Shown here piece after piece: positions 2,212 through 37,264 of a DNA stretch of 37,264 nucleotides. Within the stretch, counting starts at the first letter, position 1, and every line of letters starts with the position of its first letter. Below the pieces are notes generated by a model. That model was not told the origin of the DNA. It saw only the letters and a list, made by a program, of their open reading frames with translations, and did not search any database. A program made the position numbers and the translations under genes. The DNA is from a virus. Taxonomy: Duplodnaviria > Heunggongvirae > Uroviricota > Caudoviricetes. The stretch is from positions 1 through 37,264 of the IMG/VR virus record IMGVR_UViG_2778261068_000007; one strand, written 5' to 3'.

Positions 2212-2260
2212 TCGTGAAACCCCAGCGTTACAAGACCACCATGCCCCCAGCGTTCCATGA

Positions 2261-13466: not shown

Positions 13467-13620
13467 TGCTCCCCCTGAGTAATTACAGGAAGATTACCCG
13501 CGCGCGAAACTGTTCTCCTTAACCCCCTGTTCTGGCCGTTTTCTTACAACAAAAGCCCTTTGTATCAGCCTGTTACGCTTTGCCATCATGACTGAAGAAC
13601 CAGTCAGAGGGGCAAAAACT
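13467..13620. promoter_or_regulatory. Divergent late promoter region (P-Q leftward, O-N-M rightward)
   Basis: 154-bp gap between divergent late operons; TGT...ACA-like elements (tgttctggccgttttcttacaaca) could be Ogr sites, but no exact TGT-N12-ACA consensus was confirmed. Confidence 0.35.
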
Positions 13621-14457
13621 ATGGCTAATGAAAAAAAGACATCCCGCAAAAAGTTTCGCGTGGCTGTCTCCGGTGTAACGGCAGACGGGCGCGAAATCAA
13701 CGGCGACATGCTGAAAGCTGCCGCCACCAGTTATAACCCGTCCGTTTATGGTGCGCGTGTGAATATTGAGCACATCCTGTCACCACTCCCCGGTAGCGAG
13801 TTTTCCGCTATGGGCGATGTTGTGGGGTTGAGCACCGAAGACATAACCGATGGCCCGCTGGCAGGTCGCACGGCACTGTATGCCGAAATTGAGCCGACCG
13901 CTCGCATGATGTCCCTGCTTAACGATGGTAAAAAAATTTACTCCAGTATTGAGCTGGAACCTCAGTCAACCATCACGGGAGGCCCTTACCTGCGCGGGCT
14001 GGCAATGACCGACACCCCTGCCAGCCTGGGCACGGAACGTCTGGCCTTTGCGGCACAACAACGTATGCAACTGATGACATTCAACTGTCAGCAGGGAGAC
14101 GTGGCGATGTTTACCGCCGCTATGGAGTCAGAACTTATCGAACTCACCGAACAACGTCAGGAAGAAGGCACCCAGTGGTTTAACCGCGTTATGGGGATTA
14201 TTGGCCGTGGACGCAAAGCGGATGACGCCAGTTTCTCCCGTATTCAGGAAGCGGTGGAAGGTGTCGCAACGTCACAGGCCGACATTATCGACCGTTTTAA
14301 TGTGCTGGAAACCCGCCATCAGCAGGACAGCCAGAAAATCACTTTACTGACCACAGAGCTGGCAGCACTGAAGGAAAAACTGCGCACGCAGGACGGCGAT
14401 CCGCAGAACCGGTTCACCGCAACGGGCGCTGCCTCCGACCAGCTGGCTGACTTCTGA
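13621..14457 (+). CDS. O: Capsid scaffolding protein, P2 gpO-like
   Basis: SRKKFRVAVSGVTADGREINGDMLK...YGARVNIEHI parallels remembered gpO (SKFFRIGVEGDTCDGRVISAQDIQ...YGCRINLEHL); start at ATG 13621 with RBS gagggg. Confidence 0.9.
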   Translation: MANEKKTSRKKFRVAVSGVTADGREINGDMLKAAATSYNPSVYGARVNIEHILSPLPGSEFSAMGDVVGLSTEDITDGPLAGRTALYAEIEPTARMMSLLNDGKKIYSSIELEPQSTITGGPYLRGLAMTDTPASLGTERLAFAAQQRMQLMTFNCQQGDVAMFTAAMESELIELTEQRQEEGTQWFNRVMGIIGRGRKADDASFSRIQEAVEGVATSQADIIDRFNVLETRHQQDSQKITLLTTELAALKEKLRTQDGDPQNRFTATGAASDQLADF

Positions 14458-20455: not shown

Positions 20456-21352
20456 ATGCCTGCCGTTGACCTTTCACAGTTACCGGAACCCGCCATCATC
20501 GCGGAGCCTGATTTTGAGGCAATTCTGGCTGATACAAAGGGCATGATGATTGCGGCTTATCCGGCCGAACAGCGCGCCGCCGTCTCCGCAGCGCTGGAGC
20601 TGGAATCGGAACCCCTGAACGTTATCGCCCAGACAACAGCATTTCGTGAAATGCTGTTACGCCAGCGGGTCAACGAGGGCGCACGCGCCTGCATGTTAAG
20701 CCACAGCGCCGGGACAGACCTGGACAACCTCGCAGGTAATATGAACACAAAGCGCCTGGTTATCACTCCGGCAACGGATACCACCGACGCGGTGATGGAA
20801 AGCGACACCTCGCTGAGACTGCGGGCGCAGCGGGCGTACGACGGGCTGAGCGTTGCTGGCCCGTCAGGTGCATACGAGTATTTTGCCCGCAGTGCCAGCG
20901 GTCTGGTGCGTGATGCGCGGGCTATCAGTCCCTCTCCGGCAAATGTGACGGTTTCCATCCTGTCCACTGAAGGCGACGGCACAGCAACGGAGGCATTGCT
21001 CAATACCGTTCGCACTGCTCTGAACGCGGAGGACACTCGCCCGGTGGCCGACCGCCTGACCGTACAGAGCGCCAGAATCGTGACATGGCGGCTGAATGCA
21101 AAACTGTACTTTTACCCCGGCCCGGAATCCGAACCTATTCTGGCCGCGGCGGAATCGTCATTCAGGAAGTGGCTGGCTGAACAGGGGCTTATCGGTCAGG
21201 ACGTGGCGTTGTCCGCCATTGCTGCCGCACTGCATGTGCACGGTGTGCAACGCGTGGAGATAATCGAACCCACACAGAATCTGGCCATCAGCGACATACA
21301 GGCGGCGCGTTGTGAGTCATTCACCATCAGCGAAGGTGGGCGCAATGAGTAA
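20456..21352 (+). CDS. J: Baseplate protein, P2 gpJ-like
   Basis: 298 aa (P2 J about 302 aa), conserved W-J-I-H order. Confidence 0.85.
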   Translation: MPAVDLSQLPEPAIIAEPDFEAILADTKGMMIAAYPAEQRAAVSAALELESEPLNVIAQTTAFREMLLRQRVNEGARACMLSHSAGTDLDNLAGNMNTKRLVITPATDTTDAVMESDTSLRLRAQRAYDGLSVAGPSGAYEYFARSASGLVRDARAISPSPANVTVSILSTEGDGTATEALLNTVRTALNAEDTRPVADRLTVQSARIVTWRLNAKLYFYPGPESEPILAAAESSFRKWLAEQGLIGQDVALSAIAAALHVHGVQRVEIIEPTQNLAISDIQAARCESFTISEGGRNE

Positions 21353-21875
21353 TTCGTTGTTACCACCATCAGCCAGCAATTTCATGCGTTGTGCCGAAGC
21401 CGTCGGAACGCGCATTACAGACATTCCGGTAGACCTCAACACGCTGTGGTCGCCGGACACATGCCCGGTGCATCTGCTGCCTTATCTCGCCTGGGCGTTT
21501 TCCGTTGACCGCTGGGACCGCAACTGGCCGGAGGAAACAAAGCGCCAGGTGATTCGCGATGCGTGGCTGATACACCGACACAAGGGGACCATCAGCGCAC
21601 TGCGCCGGGCCATTGAGCCGCTGGGATACCTCATTCGCGTGTCTGAGTGGTGGGAGTTCGGCGGAGAACCGGGAACATTTACCGTTGAAGTCGGCACGCT
21701 GGACAGCGGTGTGACGGAGGAAATGTATCTGGAAATGGAGCGGTTGATTGCTGATGCCCGCCCGGTCAGCCGCCACATGACAGGGCTGAATATCATTCAG
21801 GAAATCCCGGGGGATATTTTCGCAGCGGCGGCAACTTATGACGGTGAAGTTATTACCATTTATCCAGGCGATTAA
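21345..21875 (+). CDS. I: Baseplate protein, P2 gpI-like
   Basis: Start ATG 21345 overlapping the J stop; about 176 aa. Confidence 0.8.
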   Translation: MSNSLLPPSASNFMRCAEAVGTRITDIPVDLNTLWSPDTCPVHLLPYLAWAFSVDRWDRNWPEETKRQVIRDAWLIHRHKGTISALRRAIEPLGYLIRVSEWWEFGGEPGTFTVEVGTLDSGVTEEMYLEMERLIADARPVSRHMTGLNIIQEIPGDIFAAAATYDGEVITIYPGD

Positions 21876-21877
21876 GC

Positions 21878-24103
21878 ATGAGCACCACAACACGAAAATT
21901 TAAAACCGTTATCACCGATACGGGTGCAAAAAAATTAGCACAGGCAGCCGCACCAGATGGCAAACCCGTCCGCCTGACACATATGGCCGTGGGTGACGGC
22001 GGCGGTACTTTACCCACGCCAGACAGTAAGCAGACCCGTCTCGTGCATGAGGTGTGGCGACATACCGTTAATCGCGTCTTCCTGGACGCAACACATCAGA
22101 ACCGCATTATTGCGGAGCTGGTTATTCCTCCAGAAACGGGCGGATTCTGGATCCGGGAAATTGGTGTGTTTGATGAGCACGGCGATTTAATCGCGGTGGG
22201 CAATACTGCCGAAAGTTACAAGCCAGCCGTTGCCGAAGGGTCCGGGCGTGCGCAAACATTTCGCACCATCCTGACCGTATCCAGCACGGCCACCGTGGCG
22301 CTTACCGTGGATAACACCATGGTGATGGCCACAGTGGATTACGTGGATGACAAACTAAAAGAGCATGAACAGTCACGACGTCACCCGGATGCCTCGCTGA
22401 CCGCAAAAGGCTTTACTCAGTTAAGCAGTGCGACCAACAGCACGTCTGAAGCACTGGCCGCAACGCCGAAAGCGGTAAAGGCTGCATATGACCTTGCTAA
22501 CAGGAAATATACCGCACAGGATGCCACCACAGAGCAAAAAGGCCTTGTCCAGCTCAGTAGCGCCACTAACAGCGTGTCTGAAACGATGGCGGCAACGCCG
22601 AAAGCGGTAAAGGCCGCCTATGACCTTGCTAACGGGAAATATACTGCACAGGACGCCACCACAGCGCGAAAAGGCCTTGTCCAGCTCAGTAGTGCAACCA
22701 ACAGCCCGTCTGAAACGCTGGCTGCGACGCCAAAAGCTGTTAAGACGGTAATGGATGAAACGAACAAGAAAGCGCCGCTGTCGAGTCCGGCACTCACCGG
22801 AACGCCAACCGCACCAACTGCGCCAAAGGGTACTAACAATACTCAGATAGCAAACACGGCGTTCGTTATGGCCGCGATTGCCGCACTTGTAGACTCATCA
22901 CCTGACGCACTGAATACGCTGAACGAGCTGGCTGCGGCACTGGGCAATGACCCGAACTTTGCGACCACTATGACCAACGCGCTTGCGGGCAAGCAGCCGA
23001 AAGACGCCACCCTGACGGCGCTGGCCGGGCTTGCTACTGCGGCAGACAGGTTTCCGTATTTTACAGGGAATGACACCGCCAGCCTGGCAACTCTGACAAA
23101 AGTCGGGCGGGATATTCTGGCTAAAGCGACCGTTGCCGCCGTTATCGAATACCTCGGTTTGCAGGAAACGGTAGAGTTAGCGGCAGGGGCGGTACCAGCA
23201 ACACGCAAAGTAAACGGGCGTGCGTTAACCAGTGATATAAATGTTACTTCGCAGGATATTTTTAATGGGCAGAGCATTTCTATTGGTGCTAATCAAAACT
23301 TAAATGATTATATGACTCCTGGTCTGTATCATCAGTCGCTCAACGTTAATACAAGCTCTGCATTAAACTACCCGGAGAATGGCGCCGGAAATTTAATTGT
23401 GTTAAAAAATGCTGGCGTAAAACAAATTTATCATGTGTATAACTCCTCAAGAGTGTGGTCACGTAGCAAATATTCATCAGAACCATGGACACCGTGGGCA
23501 CGAGAATATAATTCACAAAGCAAACCGACCCCGGCAGAGCTCGCAGTATTGGCATTAGCTGGCGGTAGCATGTCAGGGAGTATTAAATTTATAAATGATG
23601 CCTTCCTGATTTGGGAAAGGAACACCGACTGGGCGAAAATCGGATTTAAAAATGATTCAGATTCCGATACTGACTCATACCTGTGGTTTGAAACTGGTGA
23701 TAATGGCAATGAATATTTCAAATGGCGTATCAGGGCTGGAAGCGCAACAAAAGACTTGATGTTTTTGAAGTCTGATGCGCTCAGAGTCACTGGTCAGGTT
23801 ATACCATCTAATTACGGTAATTTTGATTCCCGTTATCAGGCTAAAAATACCGCGTCCAAAGCGGCGAATGGCTGGCATAAAGATGCCTCTACGGGAGTTA
23901 TTACACAGTGGGGATATATTTCTAACGCTGGAGCGGGATTAACATTTCCGGTGGCTTTTCCATCCGCCTGCGCAAGCATAACAATTACTAACGCACACGG
24001 GCGATTTGACTACAGTATTGCTGTTAACTCACTATCCAGAACCGGGGCAAAATTTAACAGTGAAGGTAATGGCAATATGTACTGGACAGCTATAGGTTAC
24101 TAA
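21878..24103 (+). CDS. H: Tail fibre protein, P2 gpH-like, with invertible C-terminal variable part
   Basis: 741 aa; conserved N-terminal region, internal 43-aa tandem repeats, AT-rich C-terminal third beginning at the gix-like crossover site (23142-23167). Confidence 0.9.
22409..22760 (+). repeat. About 2.7 tandem copies of a 129-bp repeat inside the tail fibre gene
   Basis: Encodes [44 protein letters not shown] three times; DNA copies nearly identical. Confidence 0.6.
23142..23167. repeat. Left gix/hix-like inversion crossover site
   Basis: ttatcgaatacctcggtttgcaggaa; inverted match to the 26020-26045 site and similar to remembered Mu gix (TTCCTGTAAACCGAGGTTTTGGATAA). Confidence 0.7.
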
Positions 24104-24104
24104 T

Positions 24105-24518
24105 ATGACGATTTATTACAGCCCATCAACGAAAGGTTTTTACGACGATAAATTAAAAAACGACTACCAGAATAATGACTCATGGCCAGAAGACCTTACT
24201 GAAATATCAGAGCGATGGTATAACTATCTTTTGCAAAAGCAGTCAGAAGGAAAAACCATCAATATCAATGAATATGGTCAGCCAGTAGTTACGGAACCAG
24301 AGCCGCCAACTCAGGAAGAGTTAACAGGACAAGCAGAGAGGCAAAAATCTAAACTTCTGGCGGAAGCGGAATCTTTTATATTACCACTGGAGCGAGCCGT
24401 AAAACTGGGGATGGCTACTGATGCTGAGCGAGAAATGCTGGAGTCGTGGGAGCGTTACAGCGTTCTGCTCAGCCGCGTGGATACGGCAAATCCAGAATGG
24501 CCACAAAAGCCTGAATAA
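24105..24518 (+). CDS. G: Tail fibre assembly chaperone, P2 gpG-like
   Basis: 137 aa directly downstream of H; inside the invertible segment. Confidence 0.8.
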
Positions 24519-24523
24519 AAAAT

Positions 24524-24541
24524 AAGGCCCGAACGGGCCTT
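24524..24541. terminator. Bidirectional terminator hairpin between the convergent chaperone genes
   Basis: aaggccc-gaac-gggcctt between the G stop (24518) and the opposite-strand stop (24545), flanked by A/T runs. Confidence 0.6.
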
Positions 24542-24544
24542 CTC

Positions 24545-25078
24545 TCATTCTGGTTGTTCGGGGAACGTGACTGGCAGGACGGAGGTATCCGTAGACTCTA
24601 CTTTCTGCGCGTAGAGCAGCCACTCGGTCAATTTTTGTTTATTCTCAGCAGAAATAATTCCAAGTCGTAGCTGAGAATCCCATAGCTGAGTTTTATCCCT
24701 GACGAGTTGTAACAGGTTTTGCTTCTCATTTTCCGCCTGTTGTCTCTGTTCTTCTTCGGTATATTCCCGCTTTATCACTGCGCCATCTTTGAACATCCAG
24801 TTACCAGAAATATCGACCCGCCTATTGGCTGTAATATCAGGAACCTCAACAACGCTTAAACCTTCGGGATTAATTGTTGATACATCCTTATCTACAGCCA
24901 CAATGATTCCATCGGCAGTGTAAGCAAATTTTATTGTATCTTCCTGAAAGTTTTTCTGTTCTTCATACCAGTTCTTACCGTCTTCCGACCACAACCAGAC
25001 AACACCGAACTGTCGTGTTAATTCATATTGTTCAACGGTTTTTGGATTTCCCGACTTGATGTTTTTTAAATGCATCAT
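24545..25078 (-). CDS. Alternative tail fibre assembly chaperone
   Basis: 177-aa ORF on the opposite strand inside the invertible segment, mirroring G. Confidence 0.75.
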   Translation of the reverse strand: MMHLKNIKSGNPKTVEQYELTRQFGVVWLWSEDGKNWYEEQKNFQEDTIKFAYTADGIIVAVDKDVSTINPEGLSVVEVPDITANRRVDISGNWMFKDGAVIKREYTEEEQRQQAENEKQNLLQLVRDKTQLWDSQLRLGIISAENKQKLTEWLLYAQKVESTDTSVLPVTFPEQPE

Positions 25079-25080
25079 AA

Positions 25081-26070
25081 TTAAATACTTCCCGCATTAT
25101 ACCAGGTGCCATTGATACAATATTGCACTGGCCTTGCCTGTGTTGTATCAATAATTTCATCTTTGTTTGAGTTAACGGAACCTGTAACAACGTAACCAGA
25201 TTTATCGCCCCAGCCAGGACCATTCCATGTTTGCGCTGATGATTTTGTACCTAATCGGATACCTGTAATAAACCGCGTATTACATTCCGCTTTAGTATAT
25301 GCCCCAACATCTGCCGCTGATGGTTTTCGGGTTGTGGTGTAAAACTCTGACCAGTCAGCCTCGAAGCCATAACCATCACGCGCTGAACGATAATAAATAC
25401 CGCCGTTCTTATAATTTACGCGGAACTGAACAGCAGGGCAGCTACCCGCGTTCATATTGAAATGAAGAATTAATGTTGATGCACCTTTTAGGTCTGCATC
25501 ATAAACACCGCTATTCCAGTTCCAGCCAACAGCTTTATCATTTGCAACCCTACTGCCTGTTATCCCTAAAGCAAAAGCAGCCTGCTGATTTTTCGTGTTG
25601 TAGTCACGTCGCCAGCCAGGTAAATACTCTGAACCGTGGTTAATATATATAAATTGTGCATTAGTGGTGCCACCACCGCTAGAGGTACTCGGTGTGGTTA
25701 TACGAATGGTCATGGCGCCTTTATTGCCCATAACTTCAATAACGCAACCCGCAAGGTGAATAAGTCCACATCCGGTGTCAGTAATAATTTTATTATTGCC
25801 GTATGACCAGGAGCATTTACACATCCAGTATGGATGATTGAAGGCCCATTGAGATTCCAGCCATTCAATAAATTGCGCCGTCGTCCAGTTTCCTGCACCT
25901 GTGCTAATAGAACCATGAAAAGAGCGGCAAGCACCTATTGTTTGCGTAAATTTATCTTTGTTTGGAATATCTGCGCCGTTCTGGTTTTTCTGCAACGCAC
26001 CAGAAGCCTGATTTACCGTTTCCTGCAAACCGAGGTTTTTGATAATGGTCGTTTCTGGCCCACATGGCAT
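25081..26070 (-). CDS. Alternative tail fibre C-terminal segment, currently promoterless
   Basis: ORF runs up to and across the right gix-like site; its crossover-encoded peptide NLGLQETV matches H (YLGLQETV); inversion would fuse it to the constant N-terminal part of H. The functional exon is probably 25081..about 26045. Confidence 0.7.
   Translation of the reverse strand: MPCGPETTIIKNLGLQETVNQASGALQKNQNGADIPNKDKFTQTIGACRSFHGSISTGAGNWTTAQFIEWLESQWAFNHPYWMCKCSWSYGNNKIITDTGCGLIHLAGCVIEVMGNKGAMTIRITTPSTSSGGGTTNAQFIYINHGSEYLPGWRRDYNTKNQQAAFALGITGSRVANDKAVGWNWNSGVYDADLKGASTLILHFNMNAGSCPAVQFRVNYKNGGIYYRSARDGYGFEADWSEFYTTTRKPSAADVGAYTKAECNTRFITGIRLGTKSSAQTWNGPGWGDKSGYVVTGSVNSNKDEIIDTTQARPVQYCINGTWYNAGSI
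26020..26045. repeat. Right gix/hix-like inversion crossover site
   Basis: ttcctgcaaaccgaggtttttgataa; its reverse complement differs from the left site at about 3 of 26 positions. Confidence 0.7.
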
Positions 26071-26099
26071 GATTTGTGCCTTTGAGCGGGAGATTCAAC

Positions 26100-26699
26100 G
26101 TGCTGATTGGCTATGTAAGGGTATCAACAAATGACCAGAACACGGATTTGCAACGCAATGCGCTCAATAGCGCAGGATGTGAACTGATTTTTGAAGATAA
26201 AATCAGCGGAACAAAGTCAGCCAGACCGGGATTGAAAAAACTGCTCAGAACACTGTCAGAAGGCGATACGCTGGTTGTCTGGAAACTGGACAGGCTGGGC
26301 AGAAGCATGAAACACCTGATCACACTGATTGAGGAATTACGGGAAAAAGGTGTCAATTTTCGTAGTCTGACGGACAGCATTGACACATCAACACCCATGG
26401 GGCGCTTCTTTTTTCACGTCATGGGGGCTTTAGCTGAAATGGAACGCGAACTGATAGTTGAACGTACCAGGGCAGGACTGGCAGCAGCCCGCGCACAGGG
26501 GCGCATTGGTGGGCGTCGCCCGAAACTGACAAAAGAGCAACATGAGCAAATAGCAAGGCTGATTAAAAACGGCCATGACAGAAAACAACTGGCCATAATT
26601 TACGGTATTGGTATATCGACGATTTATCGTTACCACCCCGCGGGAGAATCAACCGGAACAACAGAGAAGACCAGAGGAAACAAAAAACCGCTAATCTGA
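26100..26699 (+). CDS. Serine DNA invertase, Hin/Gin/Cin/Pin family
   Basis: LIGYVRVSTNDQNTDLQRNAL...LVVWKLDRLGRS...GRFFFHVMGALAEMERELIVERT...AAARAQGRIGGRRPKLT matches the remembered Hin sequence including the catalytic Ser region; GTG start 26100 with RBS gggag. Confidence 0.9.
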   Translation: MLIGYVRVSTNDQNTDLQRNALNSAGCELIFEDKISGTKSARPGLKKLLRTLSEGDTLVVWKLDRLGRSMKHLITLIEELREKGVNFRSLTDSIDTSTPMGRFFFHVMGALAEMERELIVERTRAGLAAARAQGRIGGRRPKLTKEQHEQIARLIKNGHDRKQLAIIYGIGISTIYRYHPAGESTGTTEKTRGNKKPLI

Positions 26700-26714
26700 T
26701 CATTAGCGGTTTTG
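26683..26714. terminator. Bidirectional terminator between invertase and gpU
   Basis: aaaccgctaat-ctgatc-attagcggttt perfect 11-bp stem with flanking A and T runs; invertase stop lies in the loop. Confidence 0.55.
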
Positions 26715-26721
26715 CATTAAA

Positions 26722-27210
26722 TCAGAACAACCCTTTAACTGAACTGGTCGCGCTGTTAAGGGATGCTGTCACCTTATCTTTAAGGCCGGACAGCATATCA
26801 CTGAACGCTGAGGATTGCAGGCGTTCCCGCAAATCCTCATCACAGCGTTCAAGGGTCAGGGAAAACTCTATCTTTTTCGCTTTCCCGTAGCGATCCAGTT
26901 CAGAGCGGGTCGTGCTCGTTTCGGTCAGAACATACATGCCGTAAATCTGCCCGACGCCATCAATCAGGGGCCACGGGCGCCCCATATACGCCTGCGTGGT
27001 CAGCAGCGACAGCGACACTTCGCCGCCTGTAATCTCAGGATAAAGCACGCCGGAAAGAACGATGCGATCATCACCTGCACCGATATACTGCCAGCTTGCT
27101 GAACGGTTAACGCGCTCGTTTTTCACATGTCGCCAGCTTTTGTTTTGCTGTAACTGCTGATGCGGTAATGTGCGCAACTCAAAAACAAACATGCCGTAGA
27201 TCATCATCAT
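26722..27210 (-). CDS. U: Tail protein, P2 gpU-like
   Basis: MMMIYGMFVFELRTLPHQ...VLYPEITGG...WPLIDGVGQIYGMYV parallels remembered gpU (MMLALGMFVFMRQTLPHQ...VLYPELTGG...WPLLDGTGMIYGMYV). Confidence 0.85.
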   Translation of the reverse strand: MMMIYGMFVFELRTLPHQQLQQNKSWRHVKNERVNRSASWQYIGAGDDRIVLSGVLYPEITGGEVSLSLLTTQAYMGRPWPLIDGVGQIYGMYVLTETSTTRSELDRYGKAKKIEFSLTLERCDEDLRERLQSSAFSDMLSGLKDKVTASLNSATSSVKGLF

Positions 27211-27221
27211 GGCACGACTCC

Positions 27222-30059
27222 TTACTCTTTATCATAAAAGCTGCCACGCCCGGCACGGGTACGCCGCTCCAGTTCTGCCCTGACCATTTCGCCGACCAGT
27301 TTCGCCAGTTCGCGGGGATTCTGCGTAACAACGTTATGCAGATGGACATGAATTTCACCACCAAATCCGGGGGTCGCAGCCTCCCGGCTGCGGGAAGATG
27401 CGGAAACGGGCGCAACTGGCGCACGTGCGGCCTCCACGACCGGACGGGAGCTTGCTGCAACAACAGGGGGCAGCGCCGGATATAACGGAGCCGGGGGCGC
27501 GGGAGTGATATTGATTGCAGGAAGAGCCTTGTTGCTCTGCGCAACCTTTCGCTCCTGCCACTCCCCACGAACAGCAAGCGCACGGGGCAAATTCTTAAAG
27601 ACAATATCACCGGGGCCGATACGCTTTTTCGTCTCATCAACCAGCTTGCCTGTGTTATCTGCAATTTTGCTGAGCCTGCGCAGCGTGCCAGTGTTGTTGT
27701 CCGTGAGCGGCTTGTTGTCTTTAGGCTTATCGCCTCCGGTCCCTGTTTCCGCAGACTTCGGTGGATTGATTTTTGCCAGGTCCCCCTGAAGCAAAGCAAC
27801 CTTGTCCTGAAGAATGGCCGCACGCTGCGCGTCTTCGATTTTCTTTCTCGCCCTTTCCGCTTCATCTGGAAGGACACCAAGTTTTTCCAGTATCCATGCC
27901 AGCGTATCCAGCAGCATTTTTGCAGGCGTCAGGACAAGCTGTAACGCACCGCCAAGAACGTTGCCGAATACCTCGCCAGCACTGGTGTATTTATCCAGCG
28001 TTTCCTTGCTGGATTCCATCGGTGACAGCAGCGATGTAAACCAGTTAAAGACCTGAATCACGCCATCACGAACCAGTTCGAAAACAGGGCCAAACCGTTC
28101 AAAGGTTTCGCGTAACGGGGCCAGCCGCTCCATAATCCCGCTGAACACCCCGGAAAAAAATGCCCTGATTGGGTCCCAGTATTTCCAGATGAGAACGGCA
28201 GCTCCGGCAAGCGCAGCTACGATAAGACCGACCGGGCTGAACAACGCCCCGATAGCGCCTCCCAGTAAAGAGACGGAACCCGACGCCATTCCCCACAACG
28301 CTGGCAGGACCCTGACAGCATTCATTGATCCGGTCAGGAGGGAAAAACCAAGACGCAGTTTTGCCAGCGGGCCAGCAAGCACCCCAAGAGCCAGTGACAA
28401 CGAGCCAACCGTTGCAGTCATTGCCAGCAACGCACCGCCTGCAATCAGTAGCTGGCGCGTCAGTACCGGATGGGCCTGCGCCAGCGAGGTGATTTTTTCA
28501 AGCACCCGCGTGAGCCACTGCGTGACAGAACGCAGCGGACCGTCAACCAGATCACTGATGCGAATACGAAGACCTTCCCATGCGCTGTCGAGATTTTTCA
28601 GGTCCCCATCAAGATTATCGGCCATTACTTTTGCGACGCGATCGGCCTCTCCCCTTGCCCCCTGCAATTCTCTGGTCAGTTTTTGCAGCTCTCCTGAACC
28701 AGCCGCCGCAACAAGCGTCTGCAAACCAACGAACGCCTCTTCTCCGGCGATGTCCTTGAAGAAGGAGACCTGGTCCACCTGTCCGTATTTTTGTGTCGCC
28801 TTATAGAGATCAAGCAGCACATCCTCCATCGGGCGCATTTTGCCTCTGGCGTCAGCAACTGACACCCCCAGCTCTTTCAGTGCATCAGCCGCAGCTTTTG
28901 GCGGTGATGCAAGGCGGGACAGACTTGCGCGCATGGCCGTACCAGCATCGCTTCCGCGAAGACCATTATTGGCAAGCATCCCGGCCATGGCCGCCGCTTC
29001 TTCAAGACTGATACCAAGTTTTGCGGCAACCGGACCGGTATACTTCATGGTTTCGCCCAGCGCGCGTAAATCAGTATTGGTCCGGGTGAATGCCGCTGTC
29101 AGCGTATCGCCAACCCGGTCCATTTGATCGGCTGTCAGGTTGAACTGTGTGAGGATATTGGAGCCTATATCAGCCGTCTCGCCGAGTTCGACGCCACCTG
29201 CCAGCGCCATATTAAGAACACCGGGCAATGCGGCCTGAATGGCCTGCGGAGTAAAACCAGCCATTGCCAGAAAGCTCTGCCCACTGGCGGCATCACTCGC
29301 AGTAAACTGTGTTTCAGAGCCAAGTTTTAACGCCTGCTCACGCAGCGCCTTAAACTGCGGGCTGTTTTTGTCGATTCGCGTCAGTGCCTGAACGCGGGAC
29401 ATCTCTTTCCCGAACCCGATCGCAGGCTGCAAAAAACGCCCGGCAGCATAGCCGCCAGCCGCTGCCGCACCAATTGCCAGCGCACCACCTGTTTTCAGTT
29501 TTCCCGCAGTTTCCTGCGCGCGCGAATACCGCTCACGCGCCCGCGTTACACGCGCAAGCGCCTGCCGCTCGCGTTCAAGCTGGTTGTTGTATTGTTCGGT
29601 GCGTCTGATGGCCTGCTGAATGGTGTTATCGCTGCCTGTCAGGGAAATGCCGTGGCGTTTCAGCTCTCCGCCAAGCTCCCGCATTTTCTGAATTTCCCGC
29701 GTGCGCGATTCATTCAGGCGTTCAAGCCGGGTGCTTAACTGCTGCATCAGCTTTTGTTGTTTTTCGCTGAGCACAGTACCCGTGCGTTGTAACTGATGAA
29801 GGGCGTTAAGCTGGCGTCGTGCTTTCACGATGCCAGCATCCGCTTTACTGACAGCATCGCGGGCGCGCTCAAATGAACGCGCCTGACGCTCGAGATTTTT
29901 GATTGCCCCCTGTGTTCGCTGGATGGAGTCACCAAGCTGTCCCATCAGGCGGCGGGCGTTTTCGGCTGGCCGGGTCAGCCTGTCAACAGCACTGAAGGCG
30001 ACCCGGATGTCAAGAGTCTTCATTGTCTGCATTCCCGCTGCGAAGTGCCGCCCGCTCAC
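27222..30059 (-). CDS. T: Tail tape measure protein, P2 gpT-like
   Basis: 945-aa Ala/Gly-rich protein with coiled-coil N-terminal region, between the E/E' chaperones and U. Confidence 0.85.
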   Translation of the reverse strand: MSGRHFAAGMQTMKTLDIRVAFSAVDRLTRPAENARRLMGQLGDSIQRTQGAIKNLERQARSFERARDAVSKADAGIVKARRQLNALHQLQRTGTVLSEKQQKLMQQLSTRLERLNESRTREIQKMRELGGELKRHGISLTGSDNTIQQAIRRTEQYNNQLERERQALARVTRARERYSRAQETAGKLKTGGALAIGAAAAGGYAAGRFLQPAIGFGKEMSRVQALTRIDKNSPQFKALREQALKLGSETQFTASDAASGQSFLAMAGFTPQAIQAALPGVLNMALAGGVELGETADIGSNILTQFNLTADQMDRVGDTLTAAFTRTNTDLRALGETMKYTGPVAAKLGISLEEAAAMAGMLANNGLRGSDAGTAMRASLSRLASPPKAAADALKELGVSVADARGKMRPMEDVLLDLYKATQKYGQVDQVSFFKDIAGEEAFVGLQTLVAAAGSGELQKLTRELQGARGEADRVAKVMADNLDGDLKNLDSAWEGLRIRISDLVDGPLRSVTQWLTRVLEKITSLAQAHPVLTRQLLIAGGALLAMTATVGSLSLALGVLAGPLAKLRLGFSLLTGSMNAVRVLPALWGMASGSVSLLGGAIGALFSPVGLIVAALAGAAVLIWKYWDPIRAFFSGVFSGIMERLAPLRETFERFGPVFELVRDGVIQVFNWFTSLLSPMESSKETLDKYTSAGEVFGNVLGGALQLVLTPAKMLLDTLAWILEKLGVLPDEAERARKKIEDAQRAAILQDKVALLQGDLAKINPPKSAETGTGGDKPKDNKPLTDNNTGTLRRLSKIADNTGKLVDETKKRIGPGDIVFKNLPRALAVRGEWQERKVAQSNKALPAINITPAPPAPLYPALPPVVAASSRPVVEAARAPVAPVSASSRSREAATPGFGGEIHVHLHNVVTQNPRELAKLVGEMVRAELERRTRAGRGSFYDKE

Positions 30060-30228
30060 GCCAGCTAACCACTTCGCCGGGCGTCATCATGAAGATTTCG
30101 GCGGGCGACCAGTTAAAAATAACGGCAATATCTGCCACAAAGTCTTCTATGTGCTCAAAGCACACAACCGTGATCAGGCTTCCGTCGCCTGTTCGTTCTT
30201 CCCGCCAGAGTCCGCACCGCTCAAAAAA
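30010..30228 (-). CDS. E' extension reached by programmed -1 frameshift from E
   Basis: In the E reading frame the - strand reads gta aat ttt ttg agc (heptamer T TTT TTG); a -1 slip continues as FERCGLWREER... in the overlapping ORF (track ORF 30010..30246), ending inside the start of T. Confidence 0.5.
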   Translation of the reverse strand, partial: FFERCGLWREERTGDGSLITVVCFEHIEDFVADIAVIFNWSPAEIFMMTPGEVVSWRERAALRSGNADNEDS

Positions 30229-30539
30229 TTTACGGCAACCACACATAACTGAATAAAGTCACGGGATGCCATTTTTTTGATCGTCACTTCATCCAGTCGC
30301 GGTGATGTCACGCGTGACAACAGCGTAAACATGGCTTCCGCTTTCAGATTCAGCACATCAGACAGCGACAAATCTCGCAGAGATCCAGCCTGCTCAATAG
30401 CCCCGGTGATCTCCACATACGTGATTTTTTCGCCGCCTCGCTCAATTGGCTGGGTAAGTTTTACGCCACGCTCGCTGGTTTCTTTCACAGTGTCAGTAAC
30501 TACCGTGTTTTCGGTATCGATGTTTTTCGTCTCTTTCAT
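30174..30539 (-). CDS. E: Tail assembly chaperone, P2 gpE-like
   Basis: Immediately upstream of T; ends shortly after a TTTTTTG slippery heptamer. Confidence 0.65.
   Translation of the reverse strand: MKETKNIDTENTVVTDTVKETSERGVKLTQPIERGGEKITYVEITGAIEQAGSLRDLSLSDVLNLKAEAMFTLLSRVTSPRLDEVTIKKMASRDFIQLCVVAVNFLSGADSGGKNEQATEA
30222..30228 (-). other. Slippery heptamer TTTTTTG for the E/E' frameshift
   Basis: + strand caaaaaa at 30222-30228; the same heptamer I recall for P2 E/E'. Confidence 0.6.
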
Positions 30540-30593
30540 CAGAAAACTCCTTTCAGTCAGAGGCGACGCACTGCGCCGCCTGCATATTACTTA

Positions 30594-31106
30594 TCAGCCG
30601 AGCCCAAGCGCGGAGCGGATGCGGTCGGGTACAATGTCCTTGCCATCCTTCCGGTAGATGTGGTTCGCCAGGTCAATTTCCCACACCGGACGATCGTTAA
30701 TACTCAGCTTGTAGTAGGTGTTTTTGACAGCGTAAGTGTGTGACGTGGCTTCGCCCTGTTTGGCCTCCCCCATATCAATTTCCGTCACACGCCCGCGCAT
30801 CTCGATTTCATACAGGTCGCTTTCTGCATCGGTGTAGTATTCACCCGCAAAACGCAGCAGCGTGCCGTCCATTGTTCCGCCATATTTAAGGAACAGCGCA
30901 CGAACGGCGCCACCCATGACAAAACTCGCATCAAGCGCGGAATCGTCCAGGCCGAGGTCGATACTCACCGCTCCCAGCATGCCACCACCACGATAGCTGT
31001 CGGTTTTACGCGTCAGTTTAGGCGGGGTGACAGACGTCACCTTACCCACTTCATTTTCACCATCCACAAACAGCGTAAAAAAACGAAGATGTTTTGGTAC
31101 GGCCAT
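30594..31106 (-). CDS. FII: Tail tube protein, P2 gpFII-like
   Basis: 170 aa (P2 FII about 172 aa), downstream of the sheath gene. Confidence 0.85.
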   Translation of the reverse strand: MAVPKHLRFFTLFVDGENEVGKVTSVTPPKLTRKTDSYRGGGMLGAVSIDLGLDDSALDASFVMGGAVRALFLKYGGTMDGTLLRFAGEYYTDAESDLYEIEMRGRVTEIDMGEAKQGEATSHTYAVKNTYYKLSINDRPVWEIDLANHIYRKDGKDIVPDRIRSALGLG

Positions 31107-32290
31107 TAAGCACCTCCAAGCACTGCAAATGCAGGACCAAAGAACTCATCAGTGAACGCCTGGTAAAGCTCCGCATCTTCCAGCGGAGGAATGGGCGTAT
31201 ATTTATAGCGAATACGCACGCGCCCCTGTCGTAATTCTGTGGTGCTGTTATCCACGATGTCATACCAGCACGATGCGCCAATCAGTTTCCCGGCAGTAAC
31301 CAGCGAATCCAGTTTTGCCCTGATGCCACTGATGACGTCCTTCACGTTCGCGGGCGTCAGTGGACTGTCGATGGTTTCAAACTGCGCTTCCGCAATTGAA
31401 TCAGCCAGCACCTGTGCGGTTCGGGTATACACCTCAAAGATGTAGGCGTTCGTTTCCGGTGTGCGGTTGCCCCAGAAGCGGAACCCGTTGCGGCGAATGA
31501 TGGTTGTGATTTCTTTGTTGTTGAGGCTGTTGGCGTCGCTGTCATCAGCCTGCAACGACCAGAACACATGCCTGGACATCCCCAGCACATTTTTGACCGG
31601 AACGTTGGACAGCGATTTGTGCCAGCCCTGCTCATGGTCAATGTACGCACGAAGGCCGCACGCATAGGCTGGCGCGGGGAAAACCTCATTCTCGCCACTT
31701 TTCGGGTTGTAAGCGATGAAGTCCGGCCACAGGAGCATCAGCTCGCGTTCGTTGAATTTTTCACGGTATGCAATGGCTTCAGCCATCGTGTTACAGCCAT
31801 GACAGGAGGCATACACAAACGCGCGCAGTTTACCTGCAATCACGCACAGGGATTTTGTCACCGCCTCCGTGTCCAGCCCCGGCGCGGCCAGAATACGCGG
31901 ACGGTATCCGATGCTTTCATCCTGCTCTGCAACAAGCAGCGCATACATCCCCGTATAGCTGCCGTCGGATTCAGAACCACCAATAACCAGTTGATCCTGT
32001 GTTTTTCCGTCTTCTTCTTTGTGTTCAGCCACGCGAACGACGATCACCTTTGTGCTCACCTGGTCTGCAATGGGTTTCAGCGCACGGTACAGCGTCCCCG
32101 TTGTCCCGCATTTTCCCAGCACGTCATTGACGCGGGTCACTAATGCAGGCTTGTTCAGCGGGAACAGCTTCGCGTCCGCATCGTCCGCCGTTGCCACGAT
32201 ACCGATAACGCTGGAATCAACGTCGTTAATTGCTGTTACCAGGTCGGTACTTTCCGTAACGCGGGCGCCATGAAAGCGAGTTTCACTCAT
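31106..32290 (-). CDS. FI: Tail sheath protein, P2 gpFI-like
   Basis: FPLNKP, PRIL..PGLDT, KLRAF, RELM..WPDF, DHEQGWHKSLSNV, RRNGFRFWGNRT and YTRTAQV blocks match remembered gpFI. Confidence 0.9.
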   Translation of the reverse strand: MSETRFHGARVTESTDLVTAINDVDSSVIGIVATADDADAKLFPLNKPALVTRVNDVLGKCGTTGTLYRALKPIADQVSTKVIVVRVAEHKEEDGKTQDQLVIGGSESDGSYTGMYALLVAEQDESIGYRPRILAAPGLDTEAVTKSLCVIAGKLRAFVYASCHGCNTMAEAIAYREKFNERELMLLWPDFIAYNPKSGENEVFPAPAYACGLRAYIDHEQGWHKSLSNVPVKNVLGMSRHVFWSLQADDSDANSLNNKEITTIIRRNGFRFWGNRTPETNAYIFEVYTRTAQVLADSIAEAQFETIDSPLTPANVKDVISGIRAKLDSLVTAGKLIGASCWYDIVDNSTTELRQGRVRIRYKYTPIPPLEDAELYQAFTDEFFGPAFAVLGGA

Positions 32291-32447
32291 AGTTCCAGCC
32301 CCTTGTATCCGTTAAATGATTCGGCAACAATCATCACCCACCACGCGCGCAATCTCATCCCTGCGCCGTTCTTGCCGCCCGGCGACAACAAAAAGCAGTA
32401 ACCCCGCCCGCACACACATGCGACCATGCTGCACAGGGAGGGAGCCG

Positions 32448-33548
32448 ATGATTGACACCACCATGCAACTGTTCAACCAGAGTACTGACCCCGTGAAGAT
32501 GCCTGATTTTGATATTCTCGCGGAGGGGAAAACGCTGTCCGGTGTGGCAGAACGCCTGATGAGCCTGTCACTGACCGACAACCGGGGATTTGAAGCAGAC
32601 CAGCTCACCATCACGCTGGATGATGCTGATGGTCAGTTGCAGTTGCCGCCACGGGGCGCTCGCCTGACGGTTCTCATTGGCTGGAAAGGCGAACCGCTGA
32701 CAGAAAAAGGCACTTACATTGTTGATGAAATTGCTCATGAAGGACCGCCCGACAGACTGACCATTTCAGCCAGAAGCGCAGATTTTCGGGATGAATTTAA
32801 CGTCAAGCGCGAAGTATCCTGGCATGATGTGACCGTTGAACGCGTGGTGTCTGCAATTGCTCACCGATACGGCCTGAAACCGCAAATCAGCGAAATGCTG
32901 ATGGATATCGAAATCGACCACGCAGACCAGACCGAAGAAAGCGACATGTCCTTCCTTACACGCATGGCGGAAATGTTGGGCGCAATCACCACGGTAAAAA
33001 GCGGTAATCTGTTATTCATTATGCCAGGTGGTGGCGTGAACGCGCAGGGAAAACCATTGCCATCGTTTGCCATCACACGCAGCAGCGGCGATCGCCATCA
33101 GTTTCGCATTGCTGACCGCGAGGCGTATACAGGTGTACGCGCCTACTGGCTTGATCTTAATTACGGGAAAAAGAAAAAAGTCAGCGTGAAACGCCGCAAA
33201 CCGAAAAAGGAGAAAAGCAGCAGCCGGGAAGGCGACTATATGGCAGGCGCGGAAGGCAACGTGTTTGTGTTACGCAAGACTTATCAGAACGAGCAGGCAG
33301 CAAGACGCGCAGCGGCGGCAAAGTGGCAGCAGCTACAACGCGGAGCCGCATTATTCTCCATCACGCTGGCGCGTGGACGTGCAGAACTCTATCCCGAAAT
33401 GCATGGCACAGTGGCAGGCTTCAAAAGCGACATCGACAATCAGGACTGGATTATCGCAAAAGCCGAGCACACCATTGATGGCAGTGGTTTTATCACGCAG
33501 CTTGAGCTTGAAGCAAAAATCCCGGAATGGATAGCAGAAACAGAGTGA
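32448..33548 (+). CDS. D: Tail protein D, P2 gpD-like
   Basis: Start placed at ATG 32448 after RBS gggagggag (track ORF begins upstream at 32316); about 366 aa. Confidence 0.8.
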   Translation: MIDTTMQLFNQSTDPVKMPDFDILAEGKTLSGVAERLMSLSLTDNRGFEADQLTITLDDADGQLQLPPRGARLTVLIGWKGEPLTEKGTYIVDEIAHEGPPDRLTISARSADFRDEFNVKREVSWHDVTVERVVSAIAHRYGLKPQISEMLMDIEIDHADQTEESDMSFLTRMAEMLGAITTVKSGNLLFIMPGGGVNAQGKPLPSFAITRSSGDRHQFRIADREAYTGVRAYWLDLNYGKKKKVSVKRRKPKKEKSSSREGDYMAGAEGNVFVLRKTYQNEQAARRAAAAKWQQLQRGAALFSITLARGRAELYPEMHGTVAGFKSDIDNQDWIIAKAEHTIDGSGFITQLELEAKIPEWIAETE

Positions 33549-33773: not shown

Positions 33774-35276
33774 ATGAACAAAAAGCTGTATTTATTCCCA
33801 GACTCAAACATTTTTCTACAATGCAAGGCCTTGACGCAGGTAAATTTTTCCGAGATTACTGCTTGTGATGAAGTATGTATCATTATTACAAGGCCCATTC
33901 AGCAAGAGATTGACCGCCAGAAAGGGCAAGGTAATTCCCGCCTATCCAAAAAAGCAAGGAAGGCTGCTAGCCTATTTAATCAAGTAGTTGATTCAACTGA
34001 CATGACTCTTGTTATTCGTGAACGCTCGCCGCGAGTTTTTCTTACCATGGATCTAAGCCTGAAACCATGTGAACAGTTATCTGAACAATTGGATTATCAG
34101 GAGGCCGACGATCGTTTTGTTGGTATTGCGGCAGGGTATTGCGCTGACGATCCAGATTCGGAGGTGGCAATCATTACCAATGATAGCGGTCCACGTTTTT
34201 CAGCAATAAAACATAATATAATCTGCTATAAAGTGCCTTCTTCATGGTTGCTTCCTGCTGAGCCAGATGAAAAGGATAAACAAATTAAATTGCTGGAAGC
34301 TAAGCTGAAGCAATTCACTCAGTCTATGCCCGATTTCAGCATTAAAGCAGCCGATGACGAGCAATTAAATATTGTACTTCCTTATTATACAGCTTTATCT
34401 GAATATGAAGTTGATAATTTGCTTTGTCAACTAACGGATGCATTCCCATTGGTTACAAACTTTGACAATGAACAAACTACCCCACAATCACTAGAAAAAA
34501 TCATCAAGTCATTTAGTCAACAGGAGTATTTCCCTGTATCAGCAGATGATATTTCTCTTTATAAAGAAAAACATTATCCACTTTGGAAAAAGCAGTGTGA
34601 AGAAATACTGAAAAACTGTCATACTCATATTAATCCGAAGGCAATAAAATACCCGCTGTCGTTTTTATTACAAAACACAGGTTATACTATCGCTGAACGT
34701 GCTGTGGTAACATTTACAGCAAAAGGAGATTTTCGTCTGTGTGGATTTAATTGGGAGATAATGGAAGAGCTGACTGAAAGCAAAAGGATTGACCTACCTT
34801 CAGCCCCTACCGCACCCAAAGGAAAATGGCGTAGTGTATGTGGCGTAACAGAAAGAATGCCTTACGCTTGGGGAGCTTTGGAAACACCGCTATCCAGTAT
34901 AATTTCAAAAGAAATTGGTCCTTTGTTATCTCTTACTCCAACAGAAAGGGATAAAAACGATTTTTATTATAAAGAAAAGAGAAATGTGCCAGTTCAAGTT
35001 GTATCGCTGGAATGCGAAGAGTGGCGTCATCAAGTCAAAGAAGAAATATTCCCGTTGTTCGTATATACAGCCAACAAACCAAAGAAAGTGAATGGTGCAA
35101 TTGAGGTGAGAGTTGATGCAAATAACCTTACCAATCCGGTCATTAAAACATTTAAATTAAAAATAACTATAGAAGAACATAGTGCATTTTCAACCATAAC
35201 AGAAATGGTGCAGACATACATTCAAGAGCAGAAGAAAAGACAGAAAAGTTCTATTAGCGCACAAATCAAAACATGA
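33774..35276 (+). CDS. PIN-domain protein with a roughly 350-aa uncharacterised C-terminal region
   Basis: N-terminal 150 aa carries the PIN acidic residues in order (LFPDSNIF, QQEID, EADDRF, IITNDSG); gene and flanks are AT-rich unlike the phage backbone; inserted between D and ogr. Confidence 0.6.
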   Translation: MNKKLYLFPDSNIFLQCKALTQVNFSEITACDEVCIIITRPIQQEIDRQKGQGNSRLSKKARKAASLFNQVVDSTDMTLVIRERSPRVFLTMDLSLKPCEQLSEQLDYQEADDRFVGIAAGYCADDPDSEVAIITNDSGPRFSAIKHNIICYKVPSSWLLPAEPDEKDKQIKLLEAKLKQFTQSMPDFSIKAADDEQLNIVLPYYTALSEYEVDNLLCQLTDAFPLVTNFDNEQTTPQSLEKIIKSFSQQEYFPVSADDISLYKEKHYPLWKKQCEEILKNCHTHINPKAIKYPLSFLLQNTGYTIAERAVVTFTAKGDFRLCGFNWEIMEELTESKRIDLPSAPTAPKGKWRSVCGVTERMPYAWGALETPLSSIISKEIGPLLSLTPTERDKNDFYYKEKRNVPVQVVSLECEEWRHQVKEEIFPLFVYTANKPKKVNGAIEVRVDANNLTNPVIKTFKLKITIEEHSAFSTITEMVQTYIQEQKKRQKSSISAQIKT

Positions 35277-35519: not shown

Positions 35520-35780
35520 ATGTTCCGTTGTCCGCTTTGCCGCGCATCTGCCCGTATCCGCACCAGTCGTCCTGAAAATGATTCAAACACCGTGCGGCAA
35601 AAGTATTACCAGTGTAACAATCTAGAATGCGGCGTATGCTTCTCAACACTGGAAGCTTTCCATAAATTCACATCGAAACACGCCTCCGGCGTTCACTCTT
35701 CAGAAGGTATCCCGTGGCATGAGCTGCCAGCTTCACACAGGGGAAACAATCAGATGAGTTTGCCTTTGCCTCAAAATTAA
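35520..35780 (+). CDS. ogr: Late transcription activator, Ogr-like zinc finger
   Basis: MFRCPLCRASARIRTSRP...YYQCNNLECGVCFSTLEAF parallels remembered Ogr (MFHCPLCQHAAHARTSRY...YHQCQNVNCSATFITYESV); RBS aagggagg. Confidence 0.85.
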   Translation: MFRCPLCRASARIRTSRPENDSNTVRQKYYQCNNLECGVCFSTLEAFHKFTSKHASGVHSSEGIPWHELPASHRGNNQMSLPLPQN

Positions 35781-36053: not shown

Positions 36054-36111
36054 AATACGGATGAGCTTCTGGGGAGCGGAGTTTGCGGCGTTCTTACAGT
36101 GTAAGCAGTAA
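35971..36111 (+). CDS. hok: Hok/Gef-family type I toxin (46 aa)
   Basis: MSQKSLIAITFCVTVILIIWMLHGSLCEIRMSFWGAEFAAFLQCKQ: N-terminal TM helix then SLCEIR and AAF, as in remembered Hok (..[25 protein letters not shown]..); RBS aaggag 8 nt upstream; absent from the ORF track because under 60 aa. Confidence 0.7.
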   Translation: MSQKSLIAITFCVTVILIIWMLHGSLCEIRMSFWGAEFAAFLQCKQ

Positions 36112-36196
36112 GGAAACCGCGACGGGGGAGCAATCCCCCGTCAATCGGTTGCTAAGGCTGGCCGAAGTGGCACCCTATCCCATGGACACAAACAAG

Positions 36197-36232
36197 AAAA
36201 CCCGCAGCGTAAATACTGCGGGTTTTCTTTTT
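36197..36232 (+). terminator. Rho-independent terminator of the hok-like transcript
   Basis: aaaacccgcag-cgtaaata-ctgcgggtttt followed by CTTTTT. Confidence 0.6.
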
Positions 36233-36273
36233 GGTACCCTCACAAATGAGGGCACCATCCGTAAGCAATAGGC

Positions 36274-36293: not shown

Positions 36294-36330
36294 CATATCG
36301 GCAGCAGTAACCACATAAGAGGTGCCGCAG

Positions 36331-36528
36331 ATGATGCAAAATATACGATGCAAAAATTGCTATAAATTACTTGCCCGCGCCTCATTTCACCACATTGAAA
36401 TAAAATGTCCGCGTTGCAAAACCCTTAACCAGGTAACGAGAGCCATCGAGCCCCCCACACACATGAGGAGCTATGACCGTGGGGATCGCAATCCAGCACA
36501 AAACAGCCCATACCCCGGAATACACTAA
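36331..36528 (+). CDS. com: Mu Com-like zinc-finger protein (candidate translational activator)
   Basis: MMQNIRCKNCYKLLARASFHHIEIKCPRCKTLNQV parallels remembered Mu Com (MKSIRCKNCNKLLFKADSFDHIEIRCPRCKRHIIM); RBS aagagg 8 nt upstream; 3' end overlaps the methyltransferase start by 56 nt. Confidence 0.7.
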   Translation: MMQNIRCKNCYKLLARASFHHIEIKCPRCKTLNQVTRAIEPPTHMRSYDRGDRNPAQNSPYPGIH

Positions 36529-37264
36529 GATTTACCAGACTGACAATGCCACGCTCTGCTGTGGGAATGCACTGGAAATATTGCCGCTGATTGAGCCAGA
36601 AAGCATTGATGCCTTAATCACTGATCCGCCTTACAGCTCAGGGGCAACACACAAGGCCGGACGCACCAACCAGGGCAGCCACGCAAAATATCTGAACGGC
36701 GAGAGCCTTCACCGCTTTGATGGATTTGCGGGTGAAAATATGGATGCCCGTTCGTGGGCTTACTGGACACAATTATGGATGGCACAGGCATACCGCGCAG
36801 TCAGGCCGGGCGGTTATGCCCTGGTGTTTACTGACTGGCGGCAACTGCCTGCTTTAACCGATGCGTTTCAGGCCAGCGGCTTTACATGGCGTGGAATCAT
36901 TGCGTGGAACAAAGGGAGGGGGTCACGAACACCCCATACCGGGTATTTCCGGCATCAGTGCGAATACATCGTCTGGGGCAGTAAAGGCCATTTAGGTAAA
37001 TCGCCTTCGGGACCGTTCGACGGCTGCATGACGTTCCCGGTTATCCCGTCAAAGAAACTGCATCCGACCGGAAAACCAGAAGAGTTAATGGCGGAGCTGG
37101 TCAGGACTGCGAATAGAGGCGGAACAGTCCTTGATCCTTTTATGGGGTCAGGGACAACGGGTATTGCAGCACTGAAAGCAGGACGCAAATTTATTGGTAT
37201 AGAAACCAGTGATCATTATTTTGATGTAGCAACACAACGGCTCAAAACGGCGATCGAACCATAA
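36473..37264 (+). CDS. DNA methyltransferase, N6-adenine or N4-cytosine, beta-class
   Basis: Catalytic motif ITDPPYSS precedes the AdoMet-binding motif DPFMGSGTT (beta-class order); start overlaps the end of the Com-like gene; alternative GTG start at 36479. Confidence 0.85.
   Translation: MTVGIAIQHKTAHTPEYTKIYQTDNATLCCGNALEILPLIEPESIDALITDPPYSSGATHKAGRTNQGSHAKYLNGESLHRFDGFAGENMDARSWAYWTQLWMAQAYRAVRPGGYALVFTDWRQLPALTDAFQASGFTWRGIIAWNKGRGSRTPHTGYFRHQCEYIVWGSKGHLGKSPSGPFDGCMTFPVIPSKKLHPTGKPEELMAELVRTANRGGTVLDPFMGSGTTGIAALKAGRKFIGIETSDHYFDVATQRLKTAIEP

Follow-up and report, generated by a model that had tools for sequence, protein, structure and literature searches.

The genome record of phage P2 (NC_001895) has the genes V-W-J-I-H-G and FI-FII-E-T-U-D-ogr all running in the same direction. 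In the prophage analyzed here, U, T, E/E', FII, and FI occupy the minus strand (26722-32290), and H, G, an invertase gene, and D occupy the plus strand. Because the P2 genes are all co-directional, a 5.6-kb block extending from FI to U is inverted in this DNA relative to P2. A preliminary description of the sequence raised the question of whether this order is a lineage-specific rearrangement, possibly promoted by the adjacent invertase acting on secondary sites, or an inversion introduced during assembly. Its assignment of strands is confirmed by the list of open reading frames (ORFs) together with PHROG and Pfam assignments, and its statement that the P2 F operon is co-directional with V-W-J-I-H-G agrees with the P2 record.

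The window (the whole stretch of DNA that was analyzed, 37,264 nucleotides) is of the P2-like prophage type, according to its ORF list and to PHROG and Pfam scans. Its main genes are arranged as follows.

1234-2361, minus strand: integrase
4995-7817: replication gene A
minus strand: Q and P
plus strand: O through G
21312-21875, plus strand: I
21878-24103, plus strand: tail fibre H (PHROG tail fibre families, E=1e-190)
24105-24518, plus strand: fibre assembly protein, G/U type (phrog_188, E=2e-43)
26722-27210, minus strand: tail gene U (phrog_76, 3e-72)
27222-30059, minus strand: tape measure T (phrog_28, 5e-219)
30010-30246, minus strand: tail chaperone E' (E and E' together match phrog_103, 8.5e-36, and phrog_1756, 9e-44)
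30174-30539, minus strand: tail chaperone E (matches as for E')
30594-31106, minus strand: tail tube FII (phrog_55, 8e-58)
31106-32290, minus strand: tail sheath FI (phrog_23, 2e-123)
32448-33548, plus strand: tail/baseplate hub D (phrog_52, 2e-163; Pfam Phage_GPD)
35520-35780, plus strand: ogr/delta-type zinc-finger late-gene activator (Pfam Ogr_Delta, 4e-13)

The gene identities are not down to chance, because the profile matches are very strong (E-values 1e-36 to 1e-233). The set of contractile-tail homologues of Peduoviridae is complete, with gpFI, gpFII, gpE/E' and its -1 frameshift signal, gpT, gpU, and gpD. The signal is a slippery TTTTTTG at about 30220-30226 in the overlap of E and E', comparable to the P2-type -1 frameshift. 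RefSeq labels the FII homologue "phage major tail tube protein." The amino-acid identity of U is 95% to its P88 counterpart versus 46% to P2 gpU, and that of D to P88 gpD is 97%. A 500-amino-acid PIN-domain cargo gene resides between D and ogr. An ORF at 36083-36271 was suspected from its position to encode a hok/gef protein, a candidate that was dropped when a Pfam scan of the ORF returned no matches. The best E. coli matches to the window range from 93% to 99.5% identity, varying region by region.

The longest ORF for D begins at 32316, and the conserved start, which is preceded by a Shine-Dalgarno sequence, is at 32448. FI and D therefore diverge across a gap of 157 bp (32291-32447), exactly the distance given in the preliminary description. 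D is consequently not the last gene of an F operon, and it does require a promoter of its own, as had been proposed.

Close relatives carry exactly the order of the window. A 10.5-kb query across the region aligns by megablast with phage P88 as a single collinear piece at 87% nucleotide identity, and also matches phiSM, 500465-2, P884B11, other phages, and E. coli chromosomes. The strands agree gene for gene with the P88 annotation and with two RefSeq chromosome annotations. P88 has been induced and can lyse E. coli, and phiSM is temperate and active (PMC5285337, PMC6456863); thus, the inverted order is functional. The window has the gene order of the P88-like, or Xuanwuvirus, type, in which FI-U lie opposite V-G and D and the FI-D gap is ~150 bp. 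In nucleotide sequence, P88-type phages match the tail region at 87-92% identity, and the early region, compared with E. coli prophages only, is ~93% identical over a mosaic.

When a 1.3-kb stretch reaching from the 5' part of FI across the gap into the 5' part of D was used as the query, 1109 of 5426 complete E. coli genomes contained the FI/D junction intact. A synthetic query in which the U 3' end runs straight into the beginning of D, mimicking the P2-style U-to-D junction, is intact in none of the 1389 E. coli genomes that carry these U/D sequences. Therefore, the orientation is fixed, and it reflects neither an assembly error nor a switch. Divergent FI/D junctions are also detected, at 67-73% nucleotide identity, in Enterobacter phage phiT5282H (Novemvirus), Klebsiella phages ST16-OXA48phi5.4 (Reipivirus) and Kp4861-1, and Serratia phage KSP20.

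A search built from an alignment of six D proteins was used for a survey in which 80 loci were fetched from one-genome-per-species contigs, and FI, FII, U, D, the invertase, and ogr were placed by tblastn. The 80 are the best of 433 relatives and hence biased to close relatives; with loci collected earlier they make a set of 87, in which the inverted order occurs at 69 loci (D identity to the window of 60-100%) and the P2 order, with U directly upstream of D, at 18 (D identity of 48-53%). The inverted order accounts for 62 of the 80 fetched loci, and the survey spans ~25 genera of Enterobacterales; the 69 inverted loci come from genera including Salmonella, Citrobacter, Klebsiella, Enterobacter, Kosakonia, Erwinia, Pantoea, Brenneria, Pectobacterium, Serratia, Edwardsiella, Hafnia, Yersinia, Providencia, Morganella, Xenorhabdus, and Photorhabdus. 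The lineage-specific order envisaged in the preliminary description thus reaches much wider than was supposed there.

In an unrooted neighbor-joining tree of D, the two orders form a single split in 30 of 30 bootstraps. FI is 68-75% identical inside the inverted group, versus 45-48% against P2 and Fels-2. The flipped block from the sheath gene to the gpU gene is real and represents the gene order that P88-like phages normally inherit. The arrangement is an ordinary, known lineage trait that has been visible in public records since those of KSP20 and P88.

How D is transcribed at such loci can be approached from the two junctions of the block, where the following features were located.

26684-26713: left junction, hairpin with a 12-bp stem flanked by an A-run and a T-run (terminator scan and sequence)
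32291-32447: right junction, divergent FI/D control region
32330-32335, minus strand: -10-like hexamer GATGAT of the predicted pF, starting 43.5 nt from the dyad center
32370-32387: dyad TCT-N12-ACA, TCTTGCCGCCCGGCGACA, putative Ogr/Delta-type activator site
32422-32427, plus strand: -10-like hexamer GACCAT of the predicted pD, starting 43.5 nt from the dyad center

The invertase and U genes converge on this hairpin, which probably acts as an intrinsic terminator in both directions. The FI-D gap contains no sigma-70 consensus promoter, as expected for activator-dependent late promoters. In a gap alignment of five phages from four host genera, GACAACAA is invariant and the rest of the gap is poorly conserved. 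The window's dyad has TCT in place of TGT and so matches at five of six arm positions; the KSP20 gap carries a perfect TGT-N12-ACA. Among 52 distinct FI-D gaps from inverted-order loci, T(G/C)T-N12-ACA is present at the same position in 49, and perfect TGT-N12-ACA in 24, with the arms of the dyad kept and its 12-nt spacer variable.

The position of the dyad is also constrained. In nearly all gaps, its distance from the FI start is 78.5-88.5 nt (mode 82.5), and its distance from the D start is 67.5-79.5 nt. In P2, the annotated activator site of pF is likewise centered 82.5 nt from the FI ATG, and in Fels-2 and nine other canonical relatives TGT-N12-ACA is found 79.5-83.5 nt from the FI ATG. 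This equality of distance suggests that the pF promoter traveled with the block. The -10-like hexamer of pF is conserved as GAnnAT in the five-phage alignment and in the survey, and that of pD as nAnnAT at the same offset in relatives (AACTAT, AACCAT, AATCAT). The symmetric spacing of the hexamers puts the dyad near -55 in both directions. The gap therefore has the features of Ogr/Delta late promoters, namely a dyad near -55, no -35 element, and a -10-like hexamer.

In the window as a whole, exact TGT-N12-ACA occurs four times, which is below chance expectation, and never at late promoters. A relaxed motif search of the window picked out the FI-D and P-O gaps, the latter carrying TCT-N12-ACAACAA at 13531. 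No convincing dyad was seen by eye in the pV region upstream of V. The motif in the P-O gap lies only ~48 nt from the annotated O start, a position that misfits -55 for pO unless O starts further downstream.

In the P2 record, the divergent promoters pO and pP are annotated with a single activator site. This parallel, the conserved dyad, and the symmetric hexamers lead us to propose that one Ogr site is shared by pF and a new promoter, pD. We infer that Ogr binds the FI-D dyad and that pF and pD both fire, with predicted starts near 32323 (minus strand) and 32434 (plus strand). The existence of pD and the sharing of the site are predictions made from sequence conservation.

The reading that we consider very likely is a prophage of P88-like (Xuanwuvirus-type, Peduoviridae) affiliation, with a block fixed by one ancient inversion and a single site predicted to serve both pF and pD. 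Most parsimoniously, the inversion would have happened once, at the base of a deep enterobacterial clade of P2-like phages and tail-like clusters, with breakpoints immediately upstream of the activator site of pF and at the U/D boundary. A single origin is the simplest reading of the neighbor-joining tree of one protein, D. The inversion would have carried pF along and set a dyad-symmetric Ogr-binding site beside the start of D. The single site at 32370-32387 could then serve two divergent, Ogr-dependent late promoters without a -35 element, the presumed dyad-binding factor being the ogr product (35520-35780). Under this arrangement, pF would read leftward from FI to U and end at the hairpin at 26684-26713, and pD would read rightward into D as a single divergent gene, a design like that at P2 pP/pO. 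The more specific proposition, that the inversion made a one-way pF two-way and that the Ogr site was thereby co-opted for D, now a separately transcribed late gene, is one that we favor by a slight degree.

The same split in the D tree could be read in the other direction, with the divergent order ancestral and the co-directional order of P2, 186, and Fels-2 derived. The two orders are the two sides of one unrooted split, and the tree alone does not polarize the change. However, D, U, and T still share one direction in distant P2-like phages from outside Enterobacterales. These three genes are co-directional in phiCTX and in the R-type pyocins, too. The gene table of the Burkholderia P2-like phage KS5 also has D, U, and T co-directional (PMC3091744). 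Moreover, the canonical group is the more diverse of the two, with a maximum within-group distance in the D tree of 0.70 versus 0.56 for the inverted group, and canonically ordered U and D overlap within one operon, as the coordinates of Fels-2 and P2 indicate. An ancestral divergent order is thus improbable, and a derived inversion remains the preferred reading.

The invertase that neighbors the block belongs to a Mu-G/P1-C-like module with the following parts.

23142-23167, inside H: left gix/cix-like crossover site, TTATCGAATACCTCGGTTTGCAGGAA (inverted repeat and dyad score)
24545-25078, minus strand: alternative fibre assembly gene (phrog_136, 2e-72)
25081-26070, minus strand: alternative fibre C-terminal cassette (tail fibre PHROGs)
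26020-26045: right gix/cix-like crossover site (inverted-repeat search and dyad scoring)
26076/26100-26699, plus strand: Gin/Cin/Hin-type serine DNA invertase (phrog_125, 4e-99; Pfam Resolvase, 3e-52, and HTH_7)

H consists of a constant part up to the left gix-like site and a variable C-terminal part beyond it. At this site, a 35-nt inverted repeat is 91% complementary with 26014-26048. When every 26-mer of the window was compared with the half-site consensus, the gix-like pair gave the highest dyad score, 19/24. The segment at 23142-26045 therefore has all three hallmarks of such systems: inverted sites, alternative cassettes, and an adjacent serine invertase.

The invertase might have inverted the FI-U block as well by acting on secondary gix-like sites, whether in an active switch or at the origin of the rearrangement. 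Serine invertases are able to act at secondary sites, the end of the invertase gene at 26699 abuts the left junction (U ends the block at 26722), and a gix-like match of 16/24 is located at 32572-32597, inside D. However, this match lies 125 bp into D and lacks a partner near 26700. The degenerate gix-like sites that the preliminary description suggested looking for at the two junctions score at best 12/24 and 13/24, which is the background frequency, in contrast to the 19/24 of the real pair. A search for inverted repeats flanking the block (26700/32300) found none, returning only the fibre gix pair and short chance-level matches, such as one of 19 nt and 84% within U and D. Absence of the alternative orientation from all 1389 E. 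coli genomes bearing U/D sequences speaks against switching.

The distribution of the gene also separates it from the inversion. The invertase is present in the fetched flank of only 11 of the 69 inverted-type loci and absent from that of the other 58; phiT5282H and ST16-OXA48phi5.4 are inverted without an invertase. Fels-2 has an invertase and yet keeps the canonical order, so the invertase and the block inversion are independent. The module itself is a Mu/P1-like mosaic of 78-81% nucleotide identity and is missing from most of the clade, suggesting its acquisition after the block was inverted. A causal role for the invertase, as raised in the preliminary description, is therefore very improbable. 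The neighboring enzyme would flip only the Mu-G-like fibre segment at 23142-26045 and would have had no part in the inversion of the block.

That an assembler inverted the 5.6-kb block of a genome that is really in the P2 order is a generic possibility for any inversion in one assembly, with nothing specific to recommend it here, and it is hardly credible, because identical order and junction sequences occur in the independently sequenced P88, phiSM, Chuche, PhiR44_2, 500465-2, and P884B11, because the order recurs without counter-example in the 1109 complete E. coli genomes and again in most of the fetched survey loci, because there are no flanking inverted repeats able to mislead an assembler, and because the junctions bear purpose-built signals in the form of a probable bidirectional terminator and a conserved divergent control region.

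We found no comment on the orientation of the FI-U block in the literature on P88, phiSM, Burkholderia P2-like phages, dickeyocin, or xenorhabdicin; it is displayed by deposited annotations only. Of all this, just the predicted two-way late promoter is mildly new, and we found no paper describing it in this clade. A very common group of prophages, found in approximately one in five complete E. coli genomes, has this arrangement as its standard map, and annotators should not flag such an order as a misassembly. Within the P88-like clade, D would form a transcription unit of its own. The FI-D gap appears to be a compact, conserved, and bidirectional late promoter that could easily be tested in P88 or phiSM. 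If the prediction is true, the gap would show in nature how a symmetric activator site can create a new promoter after a rearrangement.

Among known systems, P2 resembles the window in its homologous FI, FII, E/E' (with a T6G frameshift site), T, U, D, and ogr genes, in a pF dyad at the same 82.5 nt from the FI ATG, and in the use of one activator site for two divergent late promoters, which P2 has at pP/pO and the window would have at FI/D. In contrast, P2 FI to D form one co-directional operon, P2 is without an invertase, and the tail-module proteins of the window are only 32-49% identical to their P2 counterparts by tblastn. The block inversion is what distinguishes P2, 186, and Fels-2 from the window locus.

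Fels-2 (Felsduovirus, NC_010463) is also P2-like and has a Gin/Cin-type invertase and invertible fibre cassettes between its fibre and sheath genes; unlike in the window, its H, invertase, FI-U, and D genes all point the same way. The G segment and Gin of Mu, D108, and the C segment and Cin of P1 match positions 24438-26535 of the window at 78-81% nucleotide identity, and their 26-bp crossover sites match in form. However, the Mu/P1-like system here spans only the ~2.9-kb fibre segment, and the 5.6-kb FI-U block lies outside it, without such sites.

The closest counterpart is P88 (Xuanwuvirus P88, NC_026014), which has H, G, inverted fibre cassettes, and the invertase (plus strand), followed by U-T-E'-E-FII-FI on the minus strand and D and ogr on the plus strand. 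P88-type phages differ from the window in their fibre C-terminal cassettes, P88 is without the PIN-domain cargo gene between D and ogr, and the early region of the window is a mosaic that is ~93% identical to other E. coli prophages. Nevertheless, P88, phiSM, 500465-2, P884B11, Chuche, and PhiR44_2 each form one collinear alignment with the window at 87-92% nucleotide identity, and the FI-D gap of the P88 type is 157 bp, as it is in the window.

The slot between the tail/baseplate hub gene D and the late-gene activator gene ogr is variable among relatives. The features found there and elsewhere in the window are as follows.

7894-8853, + strand: ParM-type actin for plasmid segregation, full length (StbA_N and ParM_N, E=7e-82)
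23142-26045: invertible tail-fibre segment, Mu-G/P1-C-like, with 26-bp gix-like sites
33774-35276, + strand: 500-aa ORF with a PIN_4 domain, between D and ogr
36322-37264, + strand: Com-type zinc ribbon ORF and overlapping N6/N4 DNA methyltransferase gene

The 500-aa ORF carries its PIN_4 domain at the N-terminal end and has a low G+C content (~39%, compared with ~54% in its neighbours). Searches for PHROG and PADLOC matches to this ORF returned none. The same slot holds a 356-aa PIN protein in the related locus L002 and a DUF2971 gene in L005, and it is empty in P88. The ORF may represent cargo or serve in defence or as a toxin.

The longest ORF for D begins at 32316, just 25 bp from the sheath gene FI. 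A Shine-Dalgarno sequence accompanies the conserved start, which lies at 32448. Annotations of the D start in RefSeq differ among relatives, and some (L002, L005) include an additional partial "hypothetical protein" inside D on the opposite strand, which is spurious. Another relative, L009 (NZ_JBQPOM010000071.1), has a P88-type tail region with a D protein 96% identical to that of the window. Its genome carries a Firmicute label ("Vagococcus sp. WN89Y"). The presence of such a tail in a genome so labelled probably reflects contamination or a mislabelled assembly.

The late-promoter-like motif TCT-N12-ACAACAA has two further exact matches, one within gene O (14040-14061) and one in the divergent P-O gap (13531-13552), where just ~48 nt separate it from the start annotated for O. 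Either this start is misplaced or the geometry of pO is unlike that of P2.

The ParM-type actin gene lies directly after replication gene A, and such a gene is also annotated in related E. coli prophages.

At the right end, the Com-type ORF overlaps the start of the methyltransferase gene, which is incomplete because the window end (37264) cuts it; in L002, the host gene flk comes next. The arrangement at this end of the prophage resembles that of Mu com.

The left gix-like site of the fibre segment lies within the tail fibre gene H, at approximately codon 421. The fibre cassettes and adjoining invertase are 78-81% identical to those of Mu, D108 and P1, a similarity that marks the segment and invertase as a mosaic module inside a P2-like phage.
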